Positions 1 through 13,185 of a stretch of DNA of 53,248 bases are shown piece after piece. The notes below the pieces were generated by a model. It was not told where the DNA came from. It was given only the letters and a program-made list of their open reading frames with translations, and searched no databases. The DNA is from a virus (Duplodnaviria > Caudoviricetes). A program made the position numbers and the translations under genes. The stretch spans positions 1 to 53,248 of the IMG/VR virus record IMGVR_UViG_3300049489_000151; one strand, 5' to 3'. The number at the start of each line of letters is the position of its first letter. The stretch's first letter is position 1.

Positions 1-49
1 TGATGAGCCTTGTGGCCCGGTAATCAGCCGGATTGGATCAGGGGTCCCC

Positions 50-124
50 TGGTACCCCCGGTGGGAATCGAACCCACGTCAGCTGGTTAAGAGCCAGCTG
101 CTACAACCACTCAGCTACGGAGGC
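50..124 (-). tRNA. tRNA-Lys(CUU), CCA encoded
   Basis: Cloverleaf on minus strand; T-loop TTCGATT; anticodon loop CTCTTAA; ends ACCA. Confidence 0.93.
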
Positions 125-205
125 ATGTGGGAGAGTTACGGTCCCCCCGCCGCCACACAAGCCGGTACCAGCTTGCACGGTGGAGACCAGAAGTCTCCAT
201 CTCAG

Positions 206-288
206 TCCTGCGGGAGCGAATCGAACACTCATTGCCATAACGACGGCTGTTTTACAGACAGCTTCCAGGACCACCCAGAATCCGCAGG
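206..288 (-). tRNA. tRNA-Tyr(GUA)
   Basis: Acceptor CCTGCGG/CCGCAGG; anticodon loop CTGTAAA; long variable arm; imperfect T-stem. Confidence 0.85.
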
Positions 289-359
289 TTGAGAAGGGCT
301 GCAGTCACCTGCTTTGGATAGGGTGCCCTTCATACCCCACCTGGCTTTAGGGACCAGAG

Positions 360-438
360 CGGAAGGTGGAGGAATCGAACCCCCGCCCAAAGACGTAGCT
401 AGCTAGCAACCAGCTTGTGCGCCATGCACACACCTTCC
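360..438 (-). tRNA. tRNA-Ser(GCU)
   Basis: Acceptor GGAAGGT/ACCTTCC; loop TTGCTAG; G73; extended variable region. Confidence 0.85.
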
Positions 439-589
439 ATTTACCCCTTACGGGATCTAATGACGTTCTGCCCCCCAGATCTGGGGGCGAACTTCACTGT
501 TGACTCGTACTTCTTGTATTTCTTGATGGTGGGGTGCGTCTTGTAGACCTTGCCCCCCATTGCTGTACCTACGTGTCCTTTGTTCATAG

Positions 590-661
590 TACCCCCACGG
601 AGAGTCGAACTCCGTCCCAGAGCTTGAAAGGCTCTTATCCTAACCGATAGACGATGGGGGC
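590..661 (-). tRNA. tRNA-Glu(UUC)
   Basis: Anticodon arm AGAGC-CTTTCAA-GCTCT; T-loop TTCGACT. Confidence 0.92.
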
Positions 662-881
662 ATGCAGCTTGGCCAACCACCAGTTCAATACACCGGCAGT
701 AACGTTGTCGAGAAATAGCTCTACTGACGCTAGCTGGCTTGACGAGCGCTGTGACCCGATCCTTCCGGTGGAGGGGGCGGATGGCCCCCGCATGCTTGGC
801 CCTGTCGTCCCTGCTGTAAGTGAGGGACTGTCTACCTGAGACTTCGCTCCTTGGAATATGCCCTGGATGGCGTGGTCTTTG

Positions 882-955
882 CGCTCCCACGGGGAATTGA
901 ACCCACGTCTACATCCTTGACAGGGATGCGTGCTAAACCTTCACACTCTGAGAGC
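882..955 (-). tRNA. tRNA-Asp(GUC)
   Basis: Anticodon arm CATCC-CTGTCAA-GGATG; G73. Confidence 0.88.
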
Positions 956-1052
956 ATGTCTCCCGTTTCGAGACCACGGTGGGAGTGACCGAGTCGCTAC
1001 AACAGAGCAGCAGCACAGCATTACCTGTTGGCCCCTGGTGTCCATCTCTTAG

Positions 1053-1124
1053 AGGATCGTGTGGGAATTGAACCCACGTAGCAGCTTTTGCAGAGCTGTG
1101 CCTGAGCCACTCGGCCAACGATCC
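1053..1124 (-). tRNA. tRNA-Cys(GCA)
   Basis: Anticodon arm CAGCT-CTGCAAA-AGCTG; U73. Confidence 0.93.
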
Positions 1125-1209
1125 ATGAATGCCCCATTTACCAATTCTTGACGTAGCCATCTGCTTACCCGGCGACATCACCAGGTGGATTGGAGGTGGG
1201 GCCCTCCTG

Positions 1210-1284
1210 TGGTGGTTCCCTGCGGGTTCGAACCGCATCCTTGAGGATTTCAAGCTCATGTGCTTCCAGTTACACCTGAGAACC
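1210..1284 (-). tRNA. tRNA-Phe(GAA), CCA encoded
   Basis: Loop TTGAAAT; T-arm TGCGG-TTCGAAC-CCGCA; ends ACCA. Confidence 0.85.
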
Positions 1285-1289
1285 ATAGC

Positions 1290-1363
1290 GACCAGCGCTC
1301 TGCCGTTAAGCTACTCCCCCGCTTGCGTCGGGGGAGGCGGGATTCGAACCCGCACCTCTGATC
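1290..1363 (-). ncRNA. Circularly permuted tRNA-like RNA 1 (YrlA-type topology)
   Basis: Order on minus strand: GATCAG, T-arm GCGGG-TTCGAAT-CCCGC, acceptor hairpin CTCCCCCG-ACGCAAG-CGGGGGAG, TA, D-arm GCTT-AACGGCA-GAGC, CTGGTC. Confidence 0.82.
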
Positions 1364-1366
1364 TCG

Positions 1367-1437
1367 TCGGGGTGGGGAGAATCGAACTCCCATCCCGTGG
1401 TCCCAAACCACGTGTTATTCCATTTCACTACACCCCG
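1367..1437 (-). tRNA. tRNA-Pro(UGG)
   Basis: CGGGGTG acceptor; anticodon arm CGTGG-TTTGGGA-CCACG. Confidence 0.93.
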
Positions 1438-1516
1438 TAGTGGCTGGTTGTTTTACCGGCACAACCAGCAAAGCCTTTTAGGCGGACCCCTCAAATGTGC
1501 ACTATCGGGACCCGTG

Positions 1517-1589
1517 TGGAGTACCTGGGAGTCGAACCCAGATCTACTGATTGCAAGTCAGTCGTGTTAGCCACTGTCACCAGTACCCC
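1517..1589 (-). tRNA. tRNA-Ala(UGC)
   Basis: G3:U70 pair; loop CTTGCAA. Confidence 0.93.
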
Positions 1590-1593
1590 ATGC

Positions 1594-1667
1594 CCCAATA
1601 GCTCTGCCGTTGAGCTTACCTCGCCCCTTCCGGGACTGGGGGAGGATTCGAACCTCCATCCATTGGG
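1594..1667 (-). ncRNA. Circularly permuted tRNA-like RNA 2 (YrlA-type topology)
   Basis: CCCAAT, T-arm GGAGG-TTCGAAT-CCTCC, imperfect acceptor hairpin capped by GGAA, D-arm GCTC-AACGGCA-GAGC, ATTGGG. Confidence 0.78.
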
Positions 1668-1671
1668 TTAG

Positions 1672-1743
1672 TGCGTGTGACAGGATTCGAACCTGCATCA
1701 CAAAGGGTGTAAACCTTCCGCTCAGCCGTTGAGCTACACACGC
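1672..1743 (-). tRNA. tRNA-Val(UAC)
   Basis: GCGTGTG acceptor; TAGCTCAACGG D-arm; loop TTTACAC. Confidence 0.92.
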
Positions 1744-1866
1744 ATGTGACAGAGTCTCGCAGGAGAGGCGAAAGACGACGACGTCTTATATAGATTGGAC
1801 TGCATCACCGAACTACACGCACACCCGAAAGGAATCCGAAGGGGGCGCTCTGTCATGTGTAGTTTA

Positions 1867-1938
1867 TGGTGCCCCCGGAAAGAGTCGAACTCTCTGCTCA
1901 AGGTTCGTAGCCTCGATACCCAATCCCTGGGCGGGGGC
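1867..1938 (-). tRNA. tRNA-Arg(ACG), CCA encoded, atypical D-arm
   Basis: GCCCCCG/CGGGGGC acceptor; loop CTACGAA. Confidence 0.85.
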
Positions 1939-1946
1939 ATGTTGAG

Positions 1947-2021
1947 TGCTTCTCGTGGGATTCGAACCCACACTGACTGCGTTTTGAATGCAGTTCCTCT
2001 GCCTAGTTGGGATAGAGAAGC
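1947..2021 (-). tRNA. tRNA-Leu(CAA), short variable loop
   Basis: GCTTCTC/GAGAAGC acceptor; loop TTCAAAA. Confidence 0.85.
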
Positions 2022-2027
2022 ATGAAG

Positions 2028-2101
2028 TGCCCCCCCTGGGATTCGAACCCAGACTGCCGTGGGCCTAAACCACGTGCCTCCTGCCTTTGGGCTAGAGGGG
2101 C
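2028..2101 (-). tRNA. tRNA-Leu(UAG), short variable loop
   Basis: Anticodon arm CGTGG-TTTAGGC-CCACG. Confidence 0.88.
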
Positions 2102-2130
2102 AAAGACCCCCGGCCGGAAAGACCGGGGGC
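2102..2130 (-). terminator. GC-rich hairpin, possible terminator or processing stem
   Basis: Minus strand GCCCCCGGTC-TTTCC-GGCCGGGGGT followed by CTTT. Confidence 0.4.
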
Positions 2131-2235
2131 ATCCCATGTTGACGCTTCACCAAGGTTGCGACCCTTAGTGCTCAACTAGCCGAACCCGTGACCCGTAGGT
2201 CACGTGAACGACACATCCCTAGGGGGAGGGACCGG

Positions 2236-2308
2236 TGCGCCCACTGGGATTCGAACCCAGACTGAGCAGGGTTTAAACCCGCTGCCTCTACCGTTGGACT
2301 ATGGGCGC
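2236..2308 (-). tRNA. tRNA-Leu(UAA), short variable loop
   Basis: GCGCCCA/TGGGCGC acceptor; loop TTTAAAC. Confidence 0.88.
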
Positions 2309-2314
2309 ATGTCA

Positions 2315-2385
2315 TGGTCCCGGCACGAGGTTTCGAACCTCGCTGGAATCCGTATGAGAGATACGTGGTCACCAGACCTACCGGG
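2315..2385 (-). tRNA. tRNA-CAU (Met or Ile2), CCA encoded, compact D-arm
   Basis: Loop CTCATAC; T-arm CGAGG-TTCGAAA-CCTCG; ends ACCA. Confidence 0.78.
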
Positions 2386-2556
2386 TTATTGCCAGGCTTT
2401 GAGTAGCTAACTCTTCGTGAGGAGGACTAGCTAAGTCCCCTGGCTGCCTCACACACGAACCTTCCCCTTAACCGTGCTGGGTACCCGACACTCGTCTGCC
2501 GGGTGGGCCTGACTACTTAGTCCCAGTCAGGATTGGACTCTGGTAGCTAACCCAGA

Positions 2557-2647
2557 TGGAGGCGGGGGCTGGAATCGAACCAGCGTGTCCTAACGGACCT
2601 GAGGCTTATGAGACCTAGGAGGGAGCACCAACGCCCTTCGTCCCCGA
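2557..2647 (-). tRNA. Atypical tRNA-CAU with long variable arm and long D-stem
   Basis: Loop CTCATAA; variable arm GTCC-GTTA-GGAC; T-arm GCTGG-TTCGATT-CCAGC; ends TCCA. Confidence 0.72.
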
Positions 2648-2650
2648 CAT

Positions 2651-2826
2651 GAGTTTTGAGAGCTACAAGAGGCGCTAACGTGCGCAAACTCGCTGACTTG
2701 TCGCCGCTTGAAAGGCAGCCGCTGGGCCAAACAGCTTTACCCCACTCATCTCAGGCGGGGTCGGGGAGTTGAACCCCAGTGTCATGCTAATTGATGCACC
2801 ATTTCCTTGGCGCTCTCAGCACACTC
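2651..2826 (-). ncRNA. Circularly permuted tRNA-Glu(UUC)-like RNA closed by a long irregular helix
   Basis: T-arm TGGGG-TTCAACT-CCCCG, acceptor hairpin ACCCCGC/GTGGGGT, D-arm GCTG-TTTGGCC-CAGC, anticodon arm GCTGC-CTTTCAA-GCGGC; flanks pair (TGAGAGC/GCTCTCA, CAAGG/TCTTG, GGTGC/GCGCC, TGAC/GTCA). Confidence 0.75.
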
Positions 2827-2844
2827 CCGACGTAATGAGCGTCG

Positions 2845-3324
2845 TCACCTCAATAGGTGCGGAGCGTATGTACGCAGTATCGTTTCGGCGTACTCGATCT
2901 TGTCTTCGACTCGCTGTCCTCTGGGCTGCCAACGAGACCACAGCTCTAGGTTCTCAATGCGGTTGTCATTCCTTATACCGTTTTTGTGATGTACTGACTC
3001 GTGCTCGGTAAGGGGGCGACCTAGGTACTGCTCCATCATCCAACGATGTTGGGATACCGTTCTCTTCCTCCAGTTGGCTACTAGGTAGCCGTCTTTGGAC
3101 ACGTACCAAGACGGTTCAGAGGGGACCCTACATGCGGAGCATTGAGAGCTTGTCTTTAGCTTAGGAGTTCCGCAGGTGCAGGTGTCTTTGCGTAGGTGGT
3201 AGTTCTGCTTTCTTCTAGTCGTCCAACAGTCTTTGCACGTACTTGCAAGCCCGTTCTTCTTTCTCGGGTCTTTCCAGAAGTCTTCTTCTGGTTTATCGGT
3301 CAGGCAGTTCTTACAAGTCGTCAT
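2845..3324 (-). CDS. HNH homing endonuclease with N-terminal Cys zinc motifs
   Basis: HRWMMEQYLGRPL...VHHKNGIRNDNRIENLEL; free-standing within the tRNA array. Confidence 0.92.
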   Translation of the reverse strand: MTTCKNCLTDKPEEDFWKDPRKKNGLASTCKDCWTTRRKQNYHLRKDTCTCGTPKLKTSSQCSACRVPSEPSWYVSKDGYLVANWRKRTVSQHRWMMEQYLGRPLTEHESVHHKNGIRNDNRIENLELWSRWQPRGQRVEDKIEYAETILRTYAPHLLR

Positions 3325-3357
3325 GGAGACGAGTGTAACACTTTCCAAGCCAATACG

Positions 3358-3425
3358 CACCGGTGTCAGGACTCGAACCCGAGTTCATGGTTTTGGAGAC
3401 CAATCAGCTTCCTAAGCGCACCGGT
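3358..3425 (-). tRNA. tRNA-Trp(CCA), short D-arm
   Basis: ACCGGTG/CACCGGT acceptor; loop CTCCAAA. Confidence 0.85.
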
Positions 3426-3574
3426 ATGTACTAGAGGTTCACGTTCTTGCCTCTAGTGCCAGACATTGCGACCTGGTCTCCTGGTTAGGGAGAGGTAGCC
3501 TGGCTATTTTACATGCCTTCACCACACGTAAGGTACGAACCACCCCCGAAGGGGCCGGGTGTCAATCGTAGTCG

Positions 3575-3655
3575 AGGAGGGTGGAGGAGTCGAACCCCTA
3601 CCGTTAGGTACCCTAGGGTTCAAACCTAGTTGCTCACCTCTGAGCGGCACCCTCC
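3575..3655 (-). tRNA. tRNA-Ser(UGA)
   Basis: GGAGGGT/ACCCTCC acceptor; CTAGG-TTTGAAC-CCTAG; long variable arm. Confidence 0.88.
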
Positions 3656-3677
3656 GTGCATTTCATTTACTTTGTAC

Positions 3678-3706
3678 ACAGTAACAGAGTGAGTTACTAT
3701 GTGCAA
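3678..3706 (-). promoter_or_regulatory. SigA-like promoter of the tRNA array, with a palindrome in the spacer
   Basis: TTGCAC-N17-TACTGT with TGn extension; AGTAAC-N7-GTTACT inverted repeat overlaps it. Confidence 0.7.
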
Positions 3707-3750
3707 CCCTTTCTTGCACTTTCCTGAAAGATGGCCATCTACCAGGCGTT

Positions 3751-3948
3751 TCAGTCGTCAATGACCCCTAGATTCGTAGACCAGTCCTCTGCATCGGCCC
3801 CCAACTCGTTCACGATGTCGTACATAGCTCTCTGGTCAATGAGCCTTACGATGTCATCGATCGGCAGCGGTTGTAAGTGGTTGATGGTGATGACGATGTT
3901 CGTCTGGTTCTTCGATGTCTTGGCGACGGTGGGGGAGATGGTGAGCAT
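3751..3948 (-). CDS. Hypothetical protein
   Basis: ORF coupled to upstream gene by TGATG overlap. Confidence 0.6.
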   Translation of the reverse strand: MLTISPTVAKTSKNQTNIVITINHLQPLPIDDIVRLIDQRAMYDIVNELGADAEDWSTNLGVIDD

Positions 3949-4169
3949 CAGTTGACCCTCGGCTTTCCGAACTCTGGTTCCAATACGTTGTGTTGGGGGG
4001 CGCCCCACTCGGCCTCGTACCAAGACATGGTACGACCTTGAGAGCCACAGTTATTGCAGTACCCGGTAGTACTGGAGCTGCCCCAGGTTAGCGAGTGGCA
4101 CTTTACTTCGTAGTTGCAGACACAACAACGAAGTACCCCTTCTACGCCCCAGTACTCGCTGTACGTCAT
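3948..4169 (-). CDS. Small zinc-ribbon protein
   Basis: CCVC...CNNC; ATGA overlap with upstream gene. Confidence 0.6.
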   Translation of the reverse strand: MTYSEYWGVEGVLRCCVCNYEVKCHSLTWGSSSTTGYCNNCGSQGRTMSWYEAEWGAPQHNVLEPEFGKPRVN

Positions 4170-4339
4170 TTCAATCTCCCGTCGAAGTTCCGCTGAGCCT
4201 CGTGGGTGCGTTCCAACACTGGACGTTCCCACTCGTCGGAGGATGGGCCCCCGAATCTCTTGGGCGGCACCGACTTGGCTTTGAGTACGTTTCCGTCCCT
4301 AAAGGCTTGCTTGTCCTGATCTGACCACTTGTTCTTCAC
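4166..4339 (-). CDS. Hypothetical protein
   Basis: GTG start overlapping upstream stop; KWSDQDKQAFRDGNVLKA. Confidence 0.55.
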   Translation of the reverse strand: MKNKWSDQDKQAFRDGNVLKAKSVPPKRFGGPSSDEWERPVLERTHEAQRNFDGRLK

Positions 4340-4635
4340 AGCTTGTCCCCAAAGTATCGCTTGAGATCCTTGTTGTACATGAAGTACAAAGGAGACATGA
4401 GCAGAGCCCACAGCCACAAGACAATGGCGATAGCTTGTCCGAAGCCTGGAGCTGGCCAAGTGACAAAGAGAATGCTTCCCAGCACGGACAGGGTCACGCA
4501 AATTGCCCCCGTGCGGTCACGGTAGTTGCGCAGGTGACGATACCACTGGTCCTCTGTCTGGAGATGACTTGTCCCTAGCCATCGGCTAGGTGTTGGGAGC
4601 GGTCTGCCTGTCGTGGAGTCATAGTACTGTGCCAT
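4336..4635 (-). CDS. Two-TM membrane protein, probably leaderless
   Basis: Two hydrophobic helices; ATG 7 nt downstream of a -10 box. Confidence 0.65.
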   Translation of the reverse strand: MAQYYDSTTGRPLPTPSRWLGTSHLQTEDQWYRHLRNYRDRTGAICVTLSVLGSILFVTWPAPGFGQAIAIVLWLWALLMSPLYFMYNKDLKRYFGDKL

Positions 4636-4642
4636 AGGCAGC

Positions 4643-4672
4643 ACTGTACTCCACTACGGTAGCAATTGTCAA
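4643..4672 (-). promoter_or_regulatory. SigA-like promoter
   Basis: TTGACA-N18-TACAGT. Confidence 0.7.
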
Positions 4673-5740
4673 TCAAAAGTCTTCATCGAAGGACACGTCG
4701 CCAGAGATACCTGTTTGATAGTTAGATACGGTGCGTTCGAAGAAGTTGCTGAGGCTCTGCACGTCTTGGAGTTCCATGAAGTCAAATGGGTTCTTTGACC
4801 CGAACTGTGCTTCCAGACCCAACTGCTCACAACGCTGGTCGGCAACTGCTTCCAGATAGGTACGCATATCAGCAACGCTCATGCCGTTGACACCGTCTCC
4901 CAGCACGTCACGTGCGAACTGGTATTCGACCTCAACAGCTTCCCACAGCATCTGTCTGATGTCATTGTTCAACTGCTCATCGAACAGCTCTGGCTCTTCC
5001 TTCTTGACCACGTTGATCACTTCGAAGGCAAAGTTCATGTGCATGGACTCGTCCCTGAACACCCAGTTCGTGCCGTCAGCCAGCCCCGGCAGCAGCCCCT
5101 TGGAGCGCAGGAAGTACACGTAGGCGAACGCCCCGTAGAAGAACAGCCCTTCGATGCACGTGGCGAAGCAGATCAGGTTGAGTAGGAACTGACGTCGCTC
5201 GTCTTGGTTCTTCAAGTCGGTGATCCCGTGGATCTGGTCCATCCACTTGTAAGCGAAGTCTGCCTTCATCTTTACAGACGGGATGTTGTCCACGGCAGCG
5301 AACGCTGCTTCACGCTCTGACTCGTCTGGGATGTAGCTGTCCAGTAGCGTGAGGTAGAACTGTATGTGGAGGGCCTCTTCGTAGAGCTGTCTGCTCAGGT
5401 ACATCCGTGCCTCGGGGGCGTTGATGTGCTGATACAGGTTGAGCACGAGGTTGTTCGACACGATCGTGTCGCCGGTGGCGAAGAACGCCACGAGACGTGA
5501 CACCATGTGCTTCTCAGCCGGTGTCAGCTTTAAGTCCAAGTGGTTGAGGTCAAGCTGGAAGTTGATCTCGTCAACCGTCCACGTGTTCTTGATGGCGTTG
5601 AGGTACATCTCGTAGAACTGTGGGTACCGCATCGGCCTTAGGGTCAGGTCGTAGCCTGGGTCGAGGATGTTAGCAAAGACGTGCTCAGCGTGCTGTGACT
5701 CCGTCACTTCCTCTTCAATGAGGGCGAGCACGGCGCTCAC
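4673..5740 (-). CDS. nrdB: Ribonucleotide-diphosphate reductase beta subunit (class I)
   Basis: FFATGD, EEALHIQFY (radical Tyr), IEGLFFYGAF, RDESMH di-metal motifs, NFFER near C-terminus. Confidence 0.96.
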   Translation of the reverse strand: MSAVLALIEEEVTESQHAEHVFANILDPGYDLTLRPMRYPQFYEMYLNAIKNTWTVDEINFQLDLNHLDLKLTPAEKHMVSRLVAFFATGDTIVSNNLVLNLYQHINAPEARMYLSRQLYEEALHIQFYLTLLDSYIPDESEREAAFAAVDNIPSVKMKADFAYKWMDQIHGITDLKNQDERRQFLLNLICFATCIEGLFFYGAFAYVYFLRSKGLLPGLADGTNWVFRDESMHMNFAFEVINVVKKEEPELFDEQLNNDIRQMLWEAVEVEYQFARDVLGDGVNGMSVADMRTYLEAVADQRCEQLGLEAQFGSKNPFDFMELQDVQSLSNFFERTVSNYQTGISGDVSFDEDF

Positions 5741-5844
5741 TGACAGGACTCGCAGTAGTCTGGGTTCGACAAGTCACAGCTTGCCACCACCTCTGCCTCT
5801 GCGTCGTCTCCCCAGTCGATCGTGTCTTCAAACTCATCTTCCAT
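5737..5844 (-). CDS. 35-aa acidic peptide resembling the NrdA C-terminal redox tail (55 aa if started at 5904)
   Basis: Manual translation MEDEFEDTIDWGDDAEAEVVASCDLSNPDYCESCQ*; stop overlaps nrdB GTG (GTGA). Confidence 0.8.
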   Translation of the reverse strand: MEDEFEDTIDWGDDAEAEVVASCDLSNPDYCESCQ

Positions 5845-5984
5845 GGTGTCACAAGCCTTTCGGTACTCCGCATGCGGGCCTTCCGCACGGGGTGAAGATA
5901 CCATCTTACTCGTCCCCTCTCCAAGTCCTATTGCTGCCTCTCACCGTAATGAGGTAAGATTTACCTCATGGCGCTGAACCCACA

Positions 5985-6383
5985 CTACGACGACTGACGT
6001 GGGGCTCTGGCCTTGCGGCCAGCGGACGTGTTGTCTACATAGTTCGTAGGGATGTACACGGGGGTGCCTGTGTCCCTCTCAATGGCAGCGGCAGCGGCTA
6101 CTCGGTGGTGGCCTTCGGACTGCACCTTCCTCACAGACTTGCCGTTGGGGGCGTCCTCCAGGATGATGGTGGGAGGAGAGTCTGTGTCCTGCTGGTAGCC
6201 ATAGCGCTCAATGGAGCTGCGGACGCCTGTACCGTGGCCCCCCGTGTTTGGGGAAGAAGCCCTGGCTTCCTTCTCAGACCACAAGGTGGAGATCGGCCCA
6301 TCAGTAGAGTGGGTCACCTGAGACTGCCACTCTTGGCCAGTCATGAACAGCTTGAACTGGTTGGGGTCGCTCTTAATGGCCAT
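5985..6383 (-). CDS. ParB/Srx-like N-terminal domain protein (paralog 1)
   Basis: QFKLFMTGQE...SIERYG...EGHHRVAAA. Confidence 0.75.
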   Translation of the reverse strand: MAIKSDPNQFKLFMTGQEWQSQVTHSTDGPISTLWSEKEARASSPNTGGHGTGVRSSIERYGYQQDTDSPPTIILEDAPNGKSVRKVQSEGHHRVAAAAAIERDTGTPVYIPTNYVDNTSAGRKARAPRQSS

Positions 6384-7472: not shown

Positions 7473-8104
7473 GGCCTCAAGTTGTGCTCTAGGTCCTCTA
7501 TGCGGTCGTCAAGACCTTTGATGATGGACCCGAACGCAACTAGTGCCTTCCGCTGAGCCTCTTCGGCGTCGTCCCCGCTATCCATGGCCATATCTAACCT
7601 GTTTGAAAGGTCCTGCAGTTTGTGTGCCAGGTCGGCCACCTGTAGCACCAGGGCGTCGTAGTCGTCAGAAGTGCTGAATGCTGGGGTCTGTCGAAACGGT
7701 ATGCTGGGCGTTGACATTACATATCTTCCTATAGGTACTGTGCCCAAAGGCACTCTGGGCTTTACAAGATAGTTGGCCGTTGATCGTAGCACGACGGGCA
7801 GCCTGTCGATGCGCTTCTGTTGCTTCTTGAACTCAGCCATATCCTTTAAGTACTCAGAGTACTCGGGGTGGCTACTCAGAAGGTCATACTCCCACTTGAA
7901 ATTGGGGTCTAGCCCGTACAGGATTGGATACTTCTCTCCCTTCTTCCTGAGCTTGTCAACGGCGTGCTTAGCCCCCGACTTGGTACGGTGCGTTACTTTG
8001 GGCTTCCCGTAAGGCCTATCATGACTAAACCCCAGACTCTCCCCCACGTACTGGTGGATGGAAGAGTCATTCTTGTGCACTTGGAGCAGTAGGTACTTAC
8101 TCAT
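7469..8104 (-). CDS. Hypothetical protein, C-terminal coiled coil
   Basis: Long ORF in coupled operon. Confidence 0.7.
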   Translation of the reverse strand: MSKYLLLQVHKNDSSIHQYVGESLGFSHDRPYGKPKVTHRTKSGAKHAVDKLRKKGEKYPILYGLDPNFKWEYDLLSSHPEYSEYLKDMAEFKKQQKRIDRLPVVLRSTANYLVKPRVPLGTVPIGRYVMSTPSIPFRQTPAFSTSDDYDALVLQVADLAHKLQDLSNRLDMAMDSGDDAEEAQRKALVAFGSIIKGLDDRIEDLEHNLRP

Positions 8105-12360: not shown

Positions 12361-12421
12361 TGCCGAAACCCCTTCGGGGGTCGGTGGGGGGTGCTTCCCC
12401 CACCCTGACGATGGCAGGCAC
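12361..12421 (+). ncRNA. Type II hammerhead ribozyme 1 (cleavage predicted after C12382)
   Basis: TGCC-GAAA-CCCC(TTCG)GGGG-TC-GGTGGGGG(GTGCTT)CCCCCACC-CTGACGA-T-GGCA; 3' tail AGGCAC pairs with loop I. Confidence 0.93.
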
Positions 12422-12448
12422 CACGACACAAGCAAGGGAGACATCACC

Positions 12449-12757: not shown

Positions 12758-13101
12758 GCGACCGAGGAGACTTCGAACAGCGGTCACGTGTCCTGAGCGC
12801 CACGTACGACTTCGTGGACTGGATCAACAGTCTGGGCCACCTTTCACGCCTGTCAGGGGGGGCCACTATCCCGAACGGCTACCACTACAGCGTGGACACT
12901 CCTGGCAAGAGGTTCGTCCGCATCGTGATGCACACGCCTTCCCGCAGCGTCCACGCCTTCGTGGACCTCACCACGGGTGACCTCCTCAAGGCTGCAGGCT
13001 GGAAGGAACCGGCCAAGGGTGCCCGTGGTAACCTCCTGACCGGTCAGGACGAGGTGCGCCAGCGCTTCGACTGGAGTGGTCACTACTTATACAAGCGATG
13101 A
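12754..13101 (+). CDS. Conserved phage hypothetical protein
   Basis: RFVRIV...SVHAFVDLTTGDLLKAAGWKEPAKGARGN. Confidence 0.8.
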   Translation: MSDRGDFEQRSRVLSATYDFVDWINSLGHLSRLSGGATIPNGYHYSVDTPGKRFVRIVMHTPSRSVHAFVDLTTGDLLKAAGWKEPAKGARGNLLTGQDEVRQRFDWSGHYLYKR

Positions 13102-13161
13102 GCCGAAACGCCCGCAAGGGCGTCCACCAGGAATGATCTCCTGGTGCTGACGAGGCAGATC
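13102..13161 (+). ncRNA. Type II hammerhead ribozyme 2 (cleavage predicted after C13124)
   Basis: GCC-GAAA-CGCCC(GCAA)GGGCG-TC-CACCAGGA(ATGATC)TCCTGGTG-CTGACGA-GGC; tail GATC pairs with loop I. Confidence 0.94.
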
Positions 13162-13185
13162 CCGACATCACATTGGAGACACACA

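Follow-up and report, generated by a model that had tools for sequence, protein, structure and literature searches.

Stand-alone permuted tRNA-like elements within a phage tRNA array, and their likeness to the tRNA-like module of YrlA RNAs

Y RNAs are defined by the protein Ro60, and we know of no partner for their tRNA-like module. In the YrlA family this module consists of a T arm placed 5' of a D arm, with a closed acceptor hairpin, a helix in the place of the anticodon stem, conserved elbow bases and no anticodon loop. Further marks of the family are a Ro60-binding helix built from long paired 5' and 3' ends with a conserved motif close to the 5' end, a same-strand Ro60 (TROVE) gene no more than about 4 kb away, and tRNA-type modifications, with TruB and DusA as the enzymes. 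Several other RNAs, including the tRNA domain of tmRNA, the 3' tRNA-like structures of plant viruses and mascRNA, mimic the L shape of tRNA via contact between the D loop and the T loop.

The YrlA family has been proposed to derive, possibly, from dimeric tRNA transcripts (10.1101/312249), and YrlA relatives have been described that adjoin tRNA genes and occur in phages (PMC4201824, 10.1101/312249). As set out in PMC4201824, the survey of these relatives covered only TROVE-encoding genomes, accepted only matches within 4 kb of Ro60, and discarded overlaps with tandem tRNAs. The same paper describes a YrlA of M. smegmatis with a 7-bp acceptor, which RNase P cuts and which gains CCA, and which keeps a Ro60-binding stem that is bound by Rsr. 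Permuted tRNA genes form a second group for comparison: those of Cyanidioschyzon merolae and of a few other algae and archaea place the 3' half first and link the acceptor ends by a short intervening sequence, and they give decoding tRNAs via a circular intermediate, with a splicing endonuclease and a ligase acting at a bulge-helix-bulge (in part from 10.1101/312249).

Here, we describe two tRNA-like elements from a phage tRNA array. The window, meaning the whole stretch of DNA that was analysed, is an IMG/VR virus record of 53,248 bp that is rated about 57% complete. Its left 3.7 kb (positions 1-3656, minus strand) is a tRNA array with 13 tRNAs called by ARAGORN, all on the minus strand, plus additional ones recognized with Rfam; phage replication genes (RNR small chain, SNF2 helicases and a family A DNA polymerase) lie outside it. 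By DNA polymerase, the closest isolates are Streptomyces phages at 31% identity, which is too distant for host assignment. Neither a sigma-70-like promoter on either strand nor a minus-strand terminator-like site was found in 1-4000, which argues, if weakly, for reading the array as one transcript; probably, a single transcription unit covers it and continues beyond the left end of the record.

The element of main interest, copy B, occupies 1594-1667 on the minus strand as a stand-alone permuted tRNA-like structure. Read 5' to 3' on that strand, it opens with one strand of a 6-bp closing stem (1667-1662, CCCAAT, paired with 1599-1594, ATTGGG) and a 4-nt variable region (1661-1658), followed by a T arm (1657-1641) in which a 5-bp stem carries a canonical T loop of 7 nt. 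The T stem is stacked directly upon by an acceptor-type hairpin (1640-1619) of nine stacked positions, two of them adjacent internal mismatches, which is capped by GGAA (1631-1628). A 3-nt linker (1618-1616) leads into the D arm (1615-1601), whose 7-nt loop carries two G's, and a single nucleotide at 1600 precedes the return strand of the closing stem. The order is thus closing-stem strand, T arm, capped acceptor hairpin and D arm, and the anticodon loop is absent. The minimum free energy (MFE) fold is this same four-helix permuted cloverleaf, at -30.2 kcal/mol (z = -2.09; 6 of 200 shuffles are as stable).

Copy B is flanked by two intact tRNA genes. Upstream in the direction of transcription lies tRNA-Val (TAC; 1672-1743, minus strand; 64.9 bits against Rfam tRNA), whose discriminator at 1672 is separated from copy B by the 4-nt spacer 1671-1668; downstream, another 4 nt (1593-1590) lead to position +1, at 1589, of tRNA-Ala (TGC; 1517-1589, minus strand; 55.9 bits). 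ARAGORN calls both. A preliminary description, made from the letters of the sequence, had placed a permuted, anticodon-less tRNA mimic here between these two tRNAs; the fold, ARAGORN and Rfam bear out its nature and position, and its coordinates, motifs, GGAA tetraloop and two acceptor mismatches all proved correct when the sequence was read again.

A sister element, copy A, lies at 1290-1363 (minus strand) and folds into the same cloverleaf at -34.0 kcal/mol (z = -2.38; 2 of 200 shuffles are as stable). Its closing stem pairs 1363-1358 with 1295-1290, and its T arm (1353-1337) is followed by an acceptor hairpin (1336-1314) with a perfect 7-bp helix, two further pairs around a one-base bulge and a GCAA cap (1326-1323), and then by the D arm (1311-1297). 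The two copies have the T loop and the D arm in common and differ in their closing, T and acceptor stems, in keeping with the preliminary description. Copy A also sits tightly between tRNAs: tRNA-Pro (TGG; 1367-1437, minus strand) is 3 nt upstream (spacer 1366-1364), and a tRNA with an anticodon loop read as GAA (1213-1284, minus strand; 44.6 bits against Rfam tRNA and missed by ARAGORN) is 5 nt downstream (spacer 1289-1285). Near-identical DNA in isolated phages was found neither for 1-4000 of the window by megablast nor for copy A by blastn.

Several other features of the window deserve mention in their own right. ARAGORN also missed a long-arm tRNA at 206-289 (minus strand), with a loop read as anticodon GTA and a score of 42.4 bits against the Rfam tRNA-Sec model, below its cut-off. 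Bacterial tRNA-Leu normally has a long variable arm; the three tRNAs with Leu anticodons CAA, TAG and TAA (1946-2021, 2027-2101 and 2234-2308, minus strand) are only 75-76 nt long and therefore lack one. The array also holds an HNH endonuclease open reading frame (2845-3360, minus strand; Pfam HNH_3, E = 1.7e-10). Farther along the window, two type II hammerhead ribozymes lie about 740 nt apart on the plus strand (12361-12423 and 13101-13164), with scores of 39.8 and 56.3 bits that both exceed the Rfam gathering score of 37.

How do these elements compare with the known families? Of the Rfam families, only YrlA (RF02553) aligns on the T-arm side as well as on the D-arm side. Searched alone, copy B scores 15.5 bits over model positions 23-85, which is the tRNA-like module; a 'full-length' alignment of copy B at 23.9 bits extends into the flanking tRNAs and is not meaningful. 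Copy A scores 28 bits over positions 30-81 of 114, again the tRNA-like module only, and its T stem is that of the YrlA consensus. Both values are far under the gathering cut-off of 69 bits. The folds, the Rfam alignments and RNAalifold nevertheless agree that the YrlA-type module, with its T arm, closed acceptor hairpin and D arm, is present, and the copies have in common with YrlA the order of the arms, the missing anticodon loop, the helix that replaces the anticodon stem and the conserved elbow bases. In addition, the T arm of copy A, like that of the M. smegmatis YrlA, bears a stacked acceptor-type helix of 7 bp, so that the M. smegmatis RNA provides a precedent for opening by RNase P (PMC4201824); copy B differs from it in its two acceptor mismatches.

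The differences from YrlA are equally clear. The copies are embedded in a tRNA array and lack the Ro60-binding module, the extended 5'/3' helix and a Ro60 gene within reach. The closing helix is 6 (to 7) bp, and since intact tRNAs begin 3-5 nt away on both sides there is no room for a Ro60-binding stem. We rejected the classification of copies A and B as YrlA, because the score, the Ro60-binding stem and the Ro60 neighbour, three tested defining features of the family, all fail. Matches to the Rfam models of tmRNA, permuted tmRNA and mascRNA score 11-15 bits and are restricted to the T arm or to a portion of the acceptor, and the copies differ from the tmRNA domain, plant-virus 3' structures and mascRNA in having a sealed acceptor, where those RNAs keep an open and usually CCA-ended one. 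A canonical tRNA was likewise rejected: ARAGORN calls none, and the Rfam tRNA model (RF00005) matches at half length only, with 21.7 bits over the 3' half in copy B and 11.2 bits in copy A. We found no description in the literature of stand-alone or array-embedded permuted tRNA mimics in phages, and the list of 22 phages in PMC4201824 might include some; the array-embedded position of the copies is the place that the survey in that paper discarded or did not examine.

Relatives were sought by scanning viral and metagenome contigs with a pattern that combines the T loop and the D arm shared by the two copies. The viral scan gave 27 stretches, comprising 12 permuted elements and 15 plain tRNA junctions, and the metagenome scan gave at least 120. 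Taken with the two window copies, these make at least 149 matches, and the matches listed comprise 37 clear permuted elements, 15 ambiguous cases and 97 ordinary tRNA-tRNA junctions. Because the patterns were derived from these two parts of the window copies, the invariance of the T loop and the D arm (D stem) among these relatives is partly built in, and only element E2 of contig L255 and some second copies were found independently of the pattern. A structure-only scanner recovered 43 distinct elements, among them some second copies that lack the search pattern. Our own model, R1, scores copy A at 71.8 bits and copy B, a member of its training set, at 62.8 bits; it also scores ordinary tRNA-tRNA junctions, at up to about 59 bits, and all of its matches were therefore filtered with ARAGORN and our own scripts. 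A candidate shared flank, with A before and GC(U) after the element in 5 stand-alone cases, was rejected when it failed in both L255 elements, and no match came from a viral scan in which the GC flank was demanded along with the D arm of copies A and B.

Most of the clear permuted elements listed have long outer stems and conserved flanking motifs and are full Y-like RNAs, with YrlA scores of 31-44 bits. One such case is Streptomyces phage BRock, where a tRNA array is followed by Y-like RNAs and a TROVE protein (54.7 bits). The BRock record (NC_048650.1) contains at 103323-103902 an unannotated run of four Y-like RNAs, as read from the sequence, which share 5' and 3' motifs; two of the four have tRNA-like modules, and the adjacent TROVE protein is annotated only as 'RNA-binding protein'. 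In a metagenomic array of 35 tRNAs in 10 kb (contig L195), a long-stem Y-like RNA, bounded by tRNAs 30-32 nt away, and a stand-alone minimal element occur together (minus strand; reverse-complement coordinates 7630-7697, and 273-338 of contig L146).

The stand-alone form is the minority, found in four other contigs among the matches listed. In these elements the closing stem is short, and where neighbouring genes can be seen they are tRNAs at a distance of 1-7 nt. The element of L170 follows tRNA-Pro after a 3-nt spacer, as does copy A, and has two central acceptor mismatches, as does copy B; that of L146/L195 lies between tRNA-Trp and tRNA-Met and has an acceptor of about 4 bp; that of L222 directly follows tRNA-Ile and has a UUCG cap with three C-G pairs below the loop. 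L255 carries two elements, E1 and E2, in tandem 2 nt apart at 506-642 (minus strand), between a tRNA-like gene and tRNA-Asn, which match the YrlA model at 43.2 and 33.2 bits, in the module only. There are thus two copies per array in both the window and L255. A more elaborate arrangement occurs in L016 (5057-5200, minus strand), where two tRNA-like bodies are joined head to head via anticodon-type stems with 3-nt joints, and the acceptor strands are swapped such that the outer acceptor is open and the inner one capped; its 35-kb record, rated 48% complete, gave no TROVE match.

Eight elements, namely the seven stand-alone ones from five unrelated contigs and the nested one of L016, were used to analyze covariation. 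Pairing is retained in 92.2% of cells, compared with 70.0% in shuffles, and 28 cells are changed on both sides where 10.7 are expected; none of 500 shuffles reached either value. When the partner strand was slid by one to three columns, pairing fell to 52.5% or less. These results were obtained despite three sequences being out of register in the closing stem. RNAalifold independently arrived at the four helices of the cloverleaf, and 14 of their 20 pairs show compensatory changes. The preliminary description had held that a lack of homologs with compensatory changes would speak against its proposal; the same four helices, built from different sequences, in fact occur in all 8 elements. Copy B is an element that is real, structured, recurrent and covarying.

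Is it also a selected RNA? We consider that it probably is, and the argument must be made with some care. The preliminary description took the two copies with their different stems as evidence for a selected RNA family. Recurrence and covariation uphold that idea, and the bare complementarity of the stems contributes less to it than it seems to, because an origin from tandem tRNAs would supply such complementarity free. The closing stem can be judged separately, by pairing the 3' strand of the upstream anticodon stem with the 5' strand of the downstream one at tRNA-tRNA junctions. Only 12 (2.4%) of the 508 distinct neighbouring tRNA pairs from the fetched loci have at least 5 contiguous pairs of this type, and the closing stem is in this respect unlike an ordinary tRNA junction. 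All 5 of the tRNA-hugging elements that were chosen independently of the closing stem have at least 5 such contiguous pairs.

The alternative that survives best is a neutral one, in which each element is the functionless though foldable leftover of a tandem-tRNA junction, or of a Y RNA that has shed its Ro60-binding stem. The permuted order exactly matches that of a tRNA-tRNA junction, and the junction of a tandem tRNA pair would be the likely origin of the elements under our preferred reading too. In L255 E1 and E2, L288/L295 and L294, the cap loop consists of the discriminator followed by CCA, with the 3' CCA end fused directly to the 5' end, as expected from CCA-encoding tRNA genes arranged head to tail. 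Copy B, L170, L146 and L222 show eroded pairing in the acceptor, and no RNA-library contig spans either window copy. However, in the seven stand-alone cases and nested L016 the outer tRNA halves and both anticodon loops have been removed cleanly at the stem ends, with intact tRNAs remaining 1-7 nt away wherever neighbours are seen. Stable tetraloops cap stems with extra pairs in copy A (GCAA) and copy B (GGAA), and L222 has UUCG on its three C-G pairs. The array retains no parent tRNA, at least no recent one: the best local alignments of the copy halves score 15-17 over 31-34 nt and reflect the shared T-loop and D-arm motifs only, yet the bases for tertiary contacts are all intact. The paired occurrence in both the window and L255 also weighs against a relic. 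Conservation is lowest in the acceptor hairpin, which varies from about 3 to 9 pairs among stand-alone elements, and the elbow and closing stem are kept; the poor upkeep of the acceptor fits either decay or an elbow-only function. Altogether, we regard a functionless relic as unlikely, though worth keeping in mind.

Could the elements instead be bona fide Y RNAs that are bound, in spite of the missing long stem, by a Ro60 ortholog encoded in the absent 43% of the phage or by the host? YrlA is the closest family, and among 10 viral records with long-stem relatives, 6 have a TROVE match at E <= 0.001, and 5 have one above the Pfam cut-off; the four TROVE-negative records are rated 37%, 48%, 100% and 16% complete. 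When R1 was run on 5 whole records with related RNR proteins, matches appeared only in that of L030, all of them long-stem; this record has the most similar RNR found (65% identity, a value that does not establish kinship of the phages) and a weak TROVE match of 20.8 bits. Against this, tRNAs that start 3-5 nt away make a helix beyond 6-7 bp impossible at copies A and B. The upstream motif of the long-stem relatives does not occur in the array (1-3656), and when one mismatch is allowed it has 15 matches in the window, every one of them outside the array (shuffle mean 8.5). No TROVE/Ro60 gene was matched at E <= 0.1 across the 53,248 bp; since this record, at about 57% completeness, breaks off inside the array, the phage may still carry one in the part that is missing. 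The second testable record with stand-alone forms is that of L255, a 42,155-bp sequence rated 100% complete, and it also has no TROVE match. We therefore hold Ro60 binding of this kind to be improbable.

A different possibility arises from the capped acceptor itself. Because the cap loop of L255 E1 and E2, L288/L295 and L294 is a discriminator plus CCA, one cut by RNase P would be enough to give these elements a ready CCA end. A scan for CCA loops gave 131 matches in 120 loci, of which 4 have at least 6 of 7 acceptor pairs and no tRNA overlap; one of these four, L323, was judged to be an ordinary junction and set aside. A C73:G-1 pair, which is a hallmark of histidine identity, is present in copy B, L016 and L255 E1. 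Phages might thus make Ro60-independent split tRNAs, in which RNase P would open the cap and the two halves would stay paired as an anticodon-less body, either chargeable or presenting CCA. We view this as a long shot; if true, such RNAs could serve as decoys for defence toxins that attack the acceptor, or as amino-acid donors outside translation.

The permuted order, with the 3' half upstream of the 5' half and the acceptor ends joined, is also that of a permuted tRNA gene like those of Cyanidioschyzon, and processing of the neighbours as outlined below would place a 5' phosphate next to a 3' hydroxyl where the helix ends. Unlike the C. merolae-type genes, however, the copies have no bulge-helix-bulge at their termini and no anticodon loop that can be rebuilt, the joined spacers amounting to an 8-nt loop that lacks U33 in copy A, copy B and L170, and on these grounds we rejected a decoder-forming permuted gene. 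Families RtcB and RNA_ligase gave no match in the window; a search with PF09511 (RNA ligase) gave none either, and is little informative as its control also gave none anywhere. The acceptor, moreover, has mismatches or is cut short in copy B, L170, L146 and L222, and we hold it very improbable that ligation of the ends creates an anticodon loop and that RNase P and 3' trimming open the cap to yield a true decoding tRNA.

The reading that we favour, with moderate confidence, is that copies A and B represent the tRNA-like, effector-binding module of YrlA in stand-alone form, acting by themselves on a factor that binds the tRNA body. By analogy, they most likely work as that module does within YrlA. 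Each copy is a circularly permuted tRNA body, with the T arm first, the acceptor sealed by a stable tetraloop and the D arm last, in which the 6-bp helix takes the place of the anticodon arm. The element would be transcribed with the tRNA array and released by the maturation of its neighbours: in the case of copy B, 3' processing of tRNA-Val would free one side, and RNase P cleavage at the 5' end of tRNA-Ala would set the 3' end. The freed RNA, predicted to be about 82 nt long with short overhangs, would fold into an L shape through conserved U8/A14 and G18-G19/T-loop contacts. Its elbow, made up of the D loop, the T loop and the D and T stems, could then act on a factor that binds tRNA bodies, either as its ligand or as a competitor, with no tether to Ro60. 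We take the elbow to be the working surface, as proposed for YrlA, because the acceptor is the least conserved part and the elbow and closing stem are retained. Copy A, with its perfect 7-bp acceptor, may also be opened in its cap by RNase P in the manner of the M. smegmatis RNA; copy B would be a poorer candidate because of its two mismatches.

Expression data came from 4 runs, all stored as contigs, one of which, a metatranscriptome (RNA-library) run, holds this phage. Its contigs are identical to 349-527, 1741-1918, 1901-2051, 2355-2801 and further pieces of the record, and DNA carry-over may account for some of them; in this one run, no contig was seen to cross 1290-1363 or 1594-1667. A soil run contains a diverged contig over 1052-1435. 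The identical contig over 2355-2801 (minus strand) has the highest depth (29) in 1-6000, and sub-threshold tmRNA-like matches fall at 2554-2645 and 2763-2777 (minus strand); this segment may represent a stable phage RNA inside the array.

A natural stand-alone module would show that the tRNA-like module of Y RNAs has a job of its own. It is repeated in phage tRNA arrays, and one of the phage records that carry it is complete and has no Ro60 gene. The element, at about 75 nt, offers a minimal RNA bait for the discovery of partners. The elements also provide living examples for the proposed dimeric-tRNA origin of YrlA, with L016 having the look of a head-to-head dimer, and L255 and L288 carrying caps made of discriminator plus CCA. 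Since such elements are missed by tRNA finders and fall below the Rfam YrlA threshold, the tRNA arrays of phages may hold many that have gone unnoticed.
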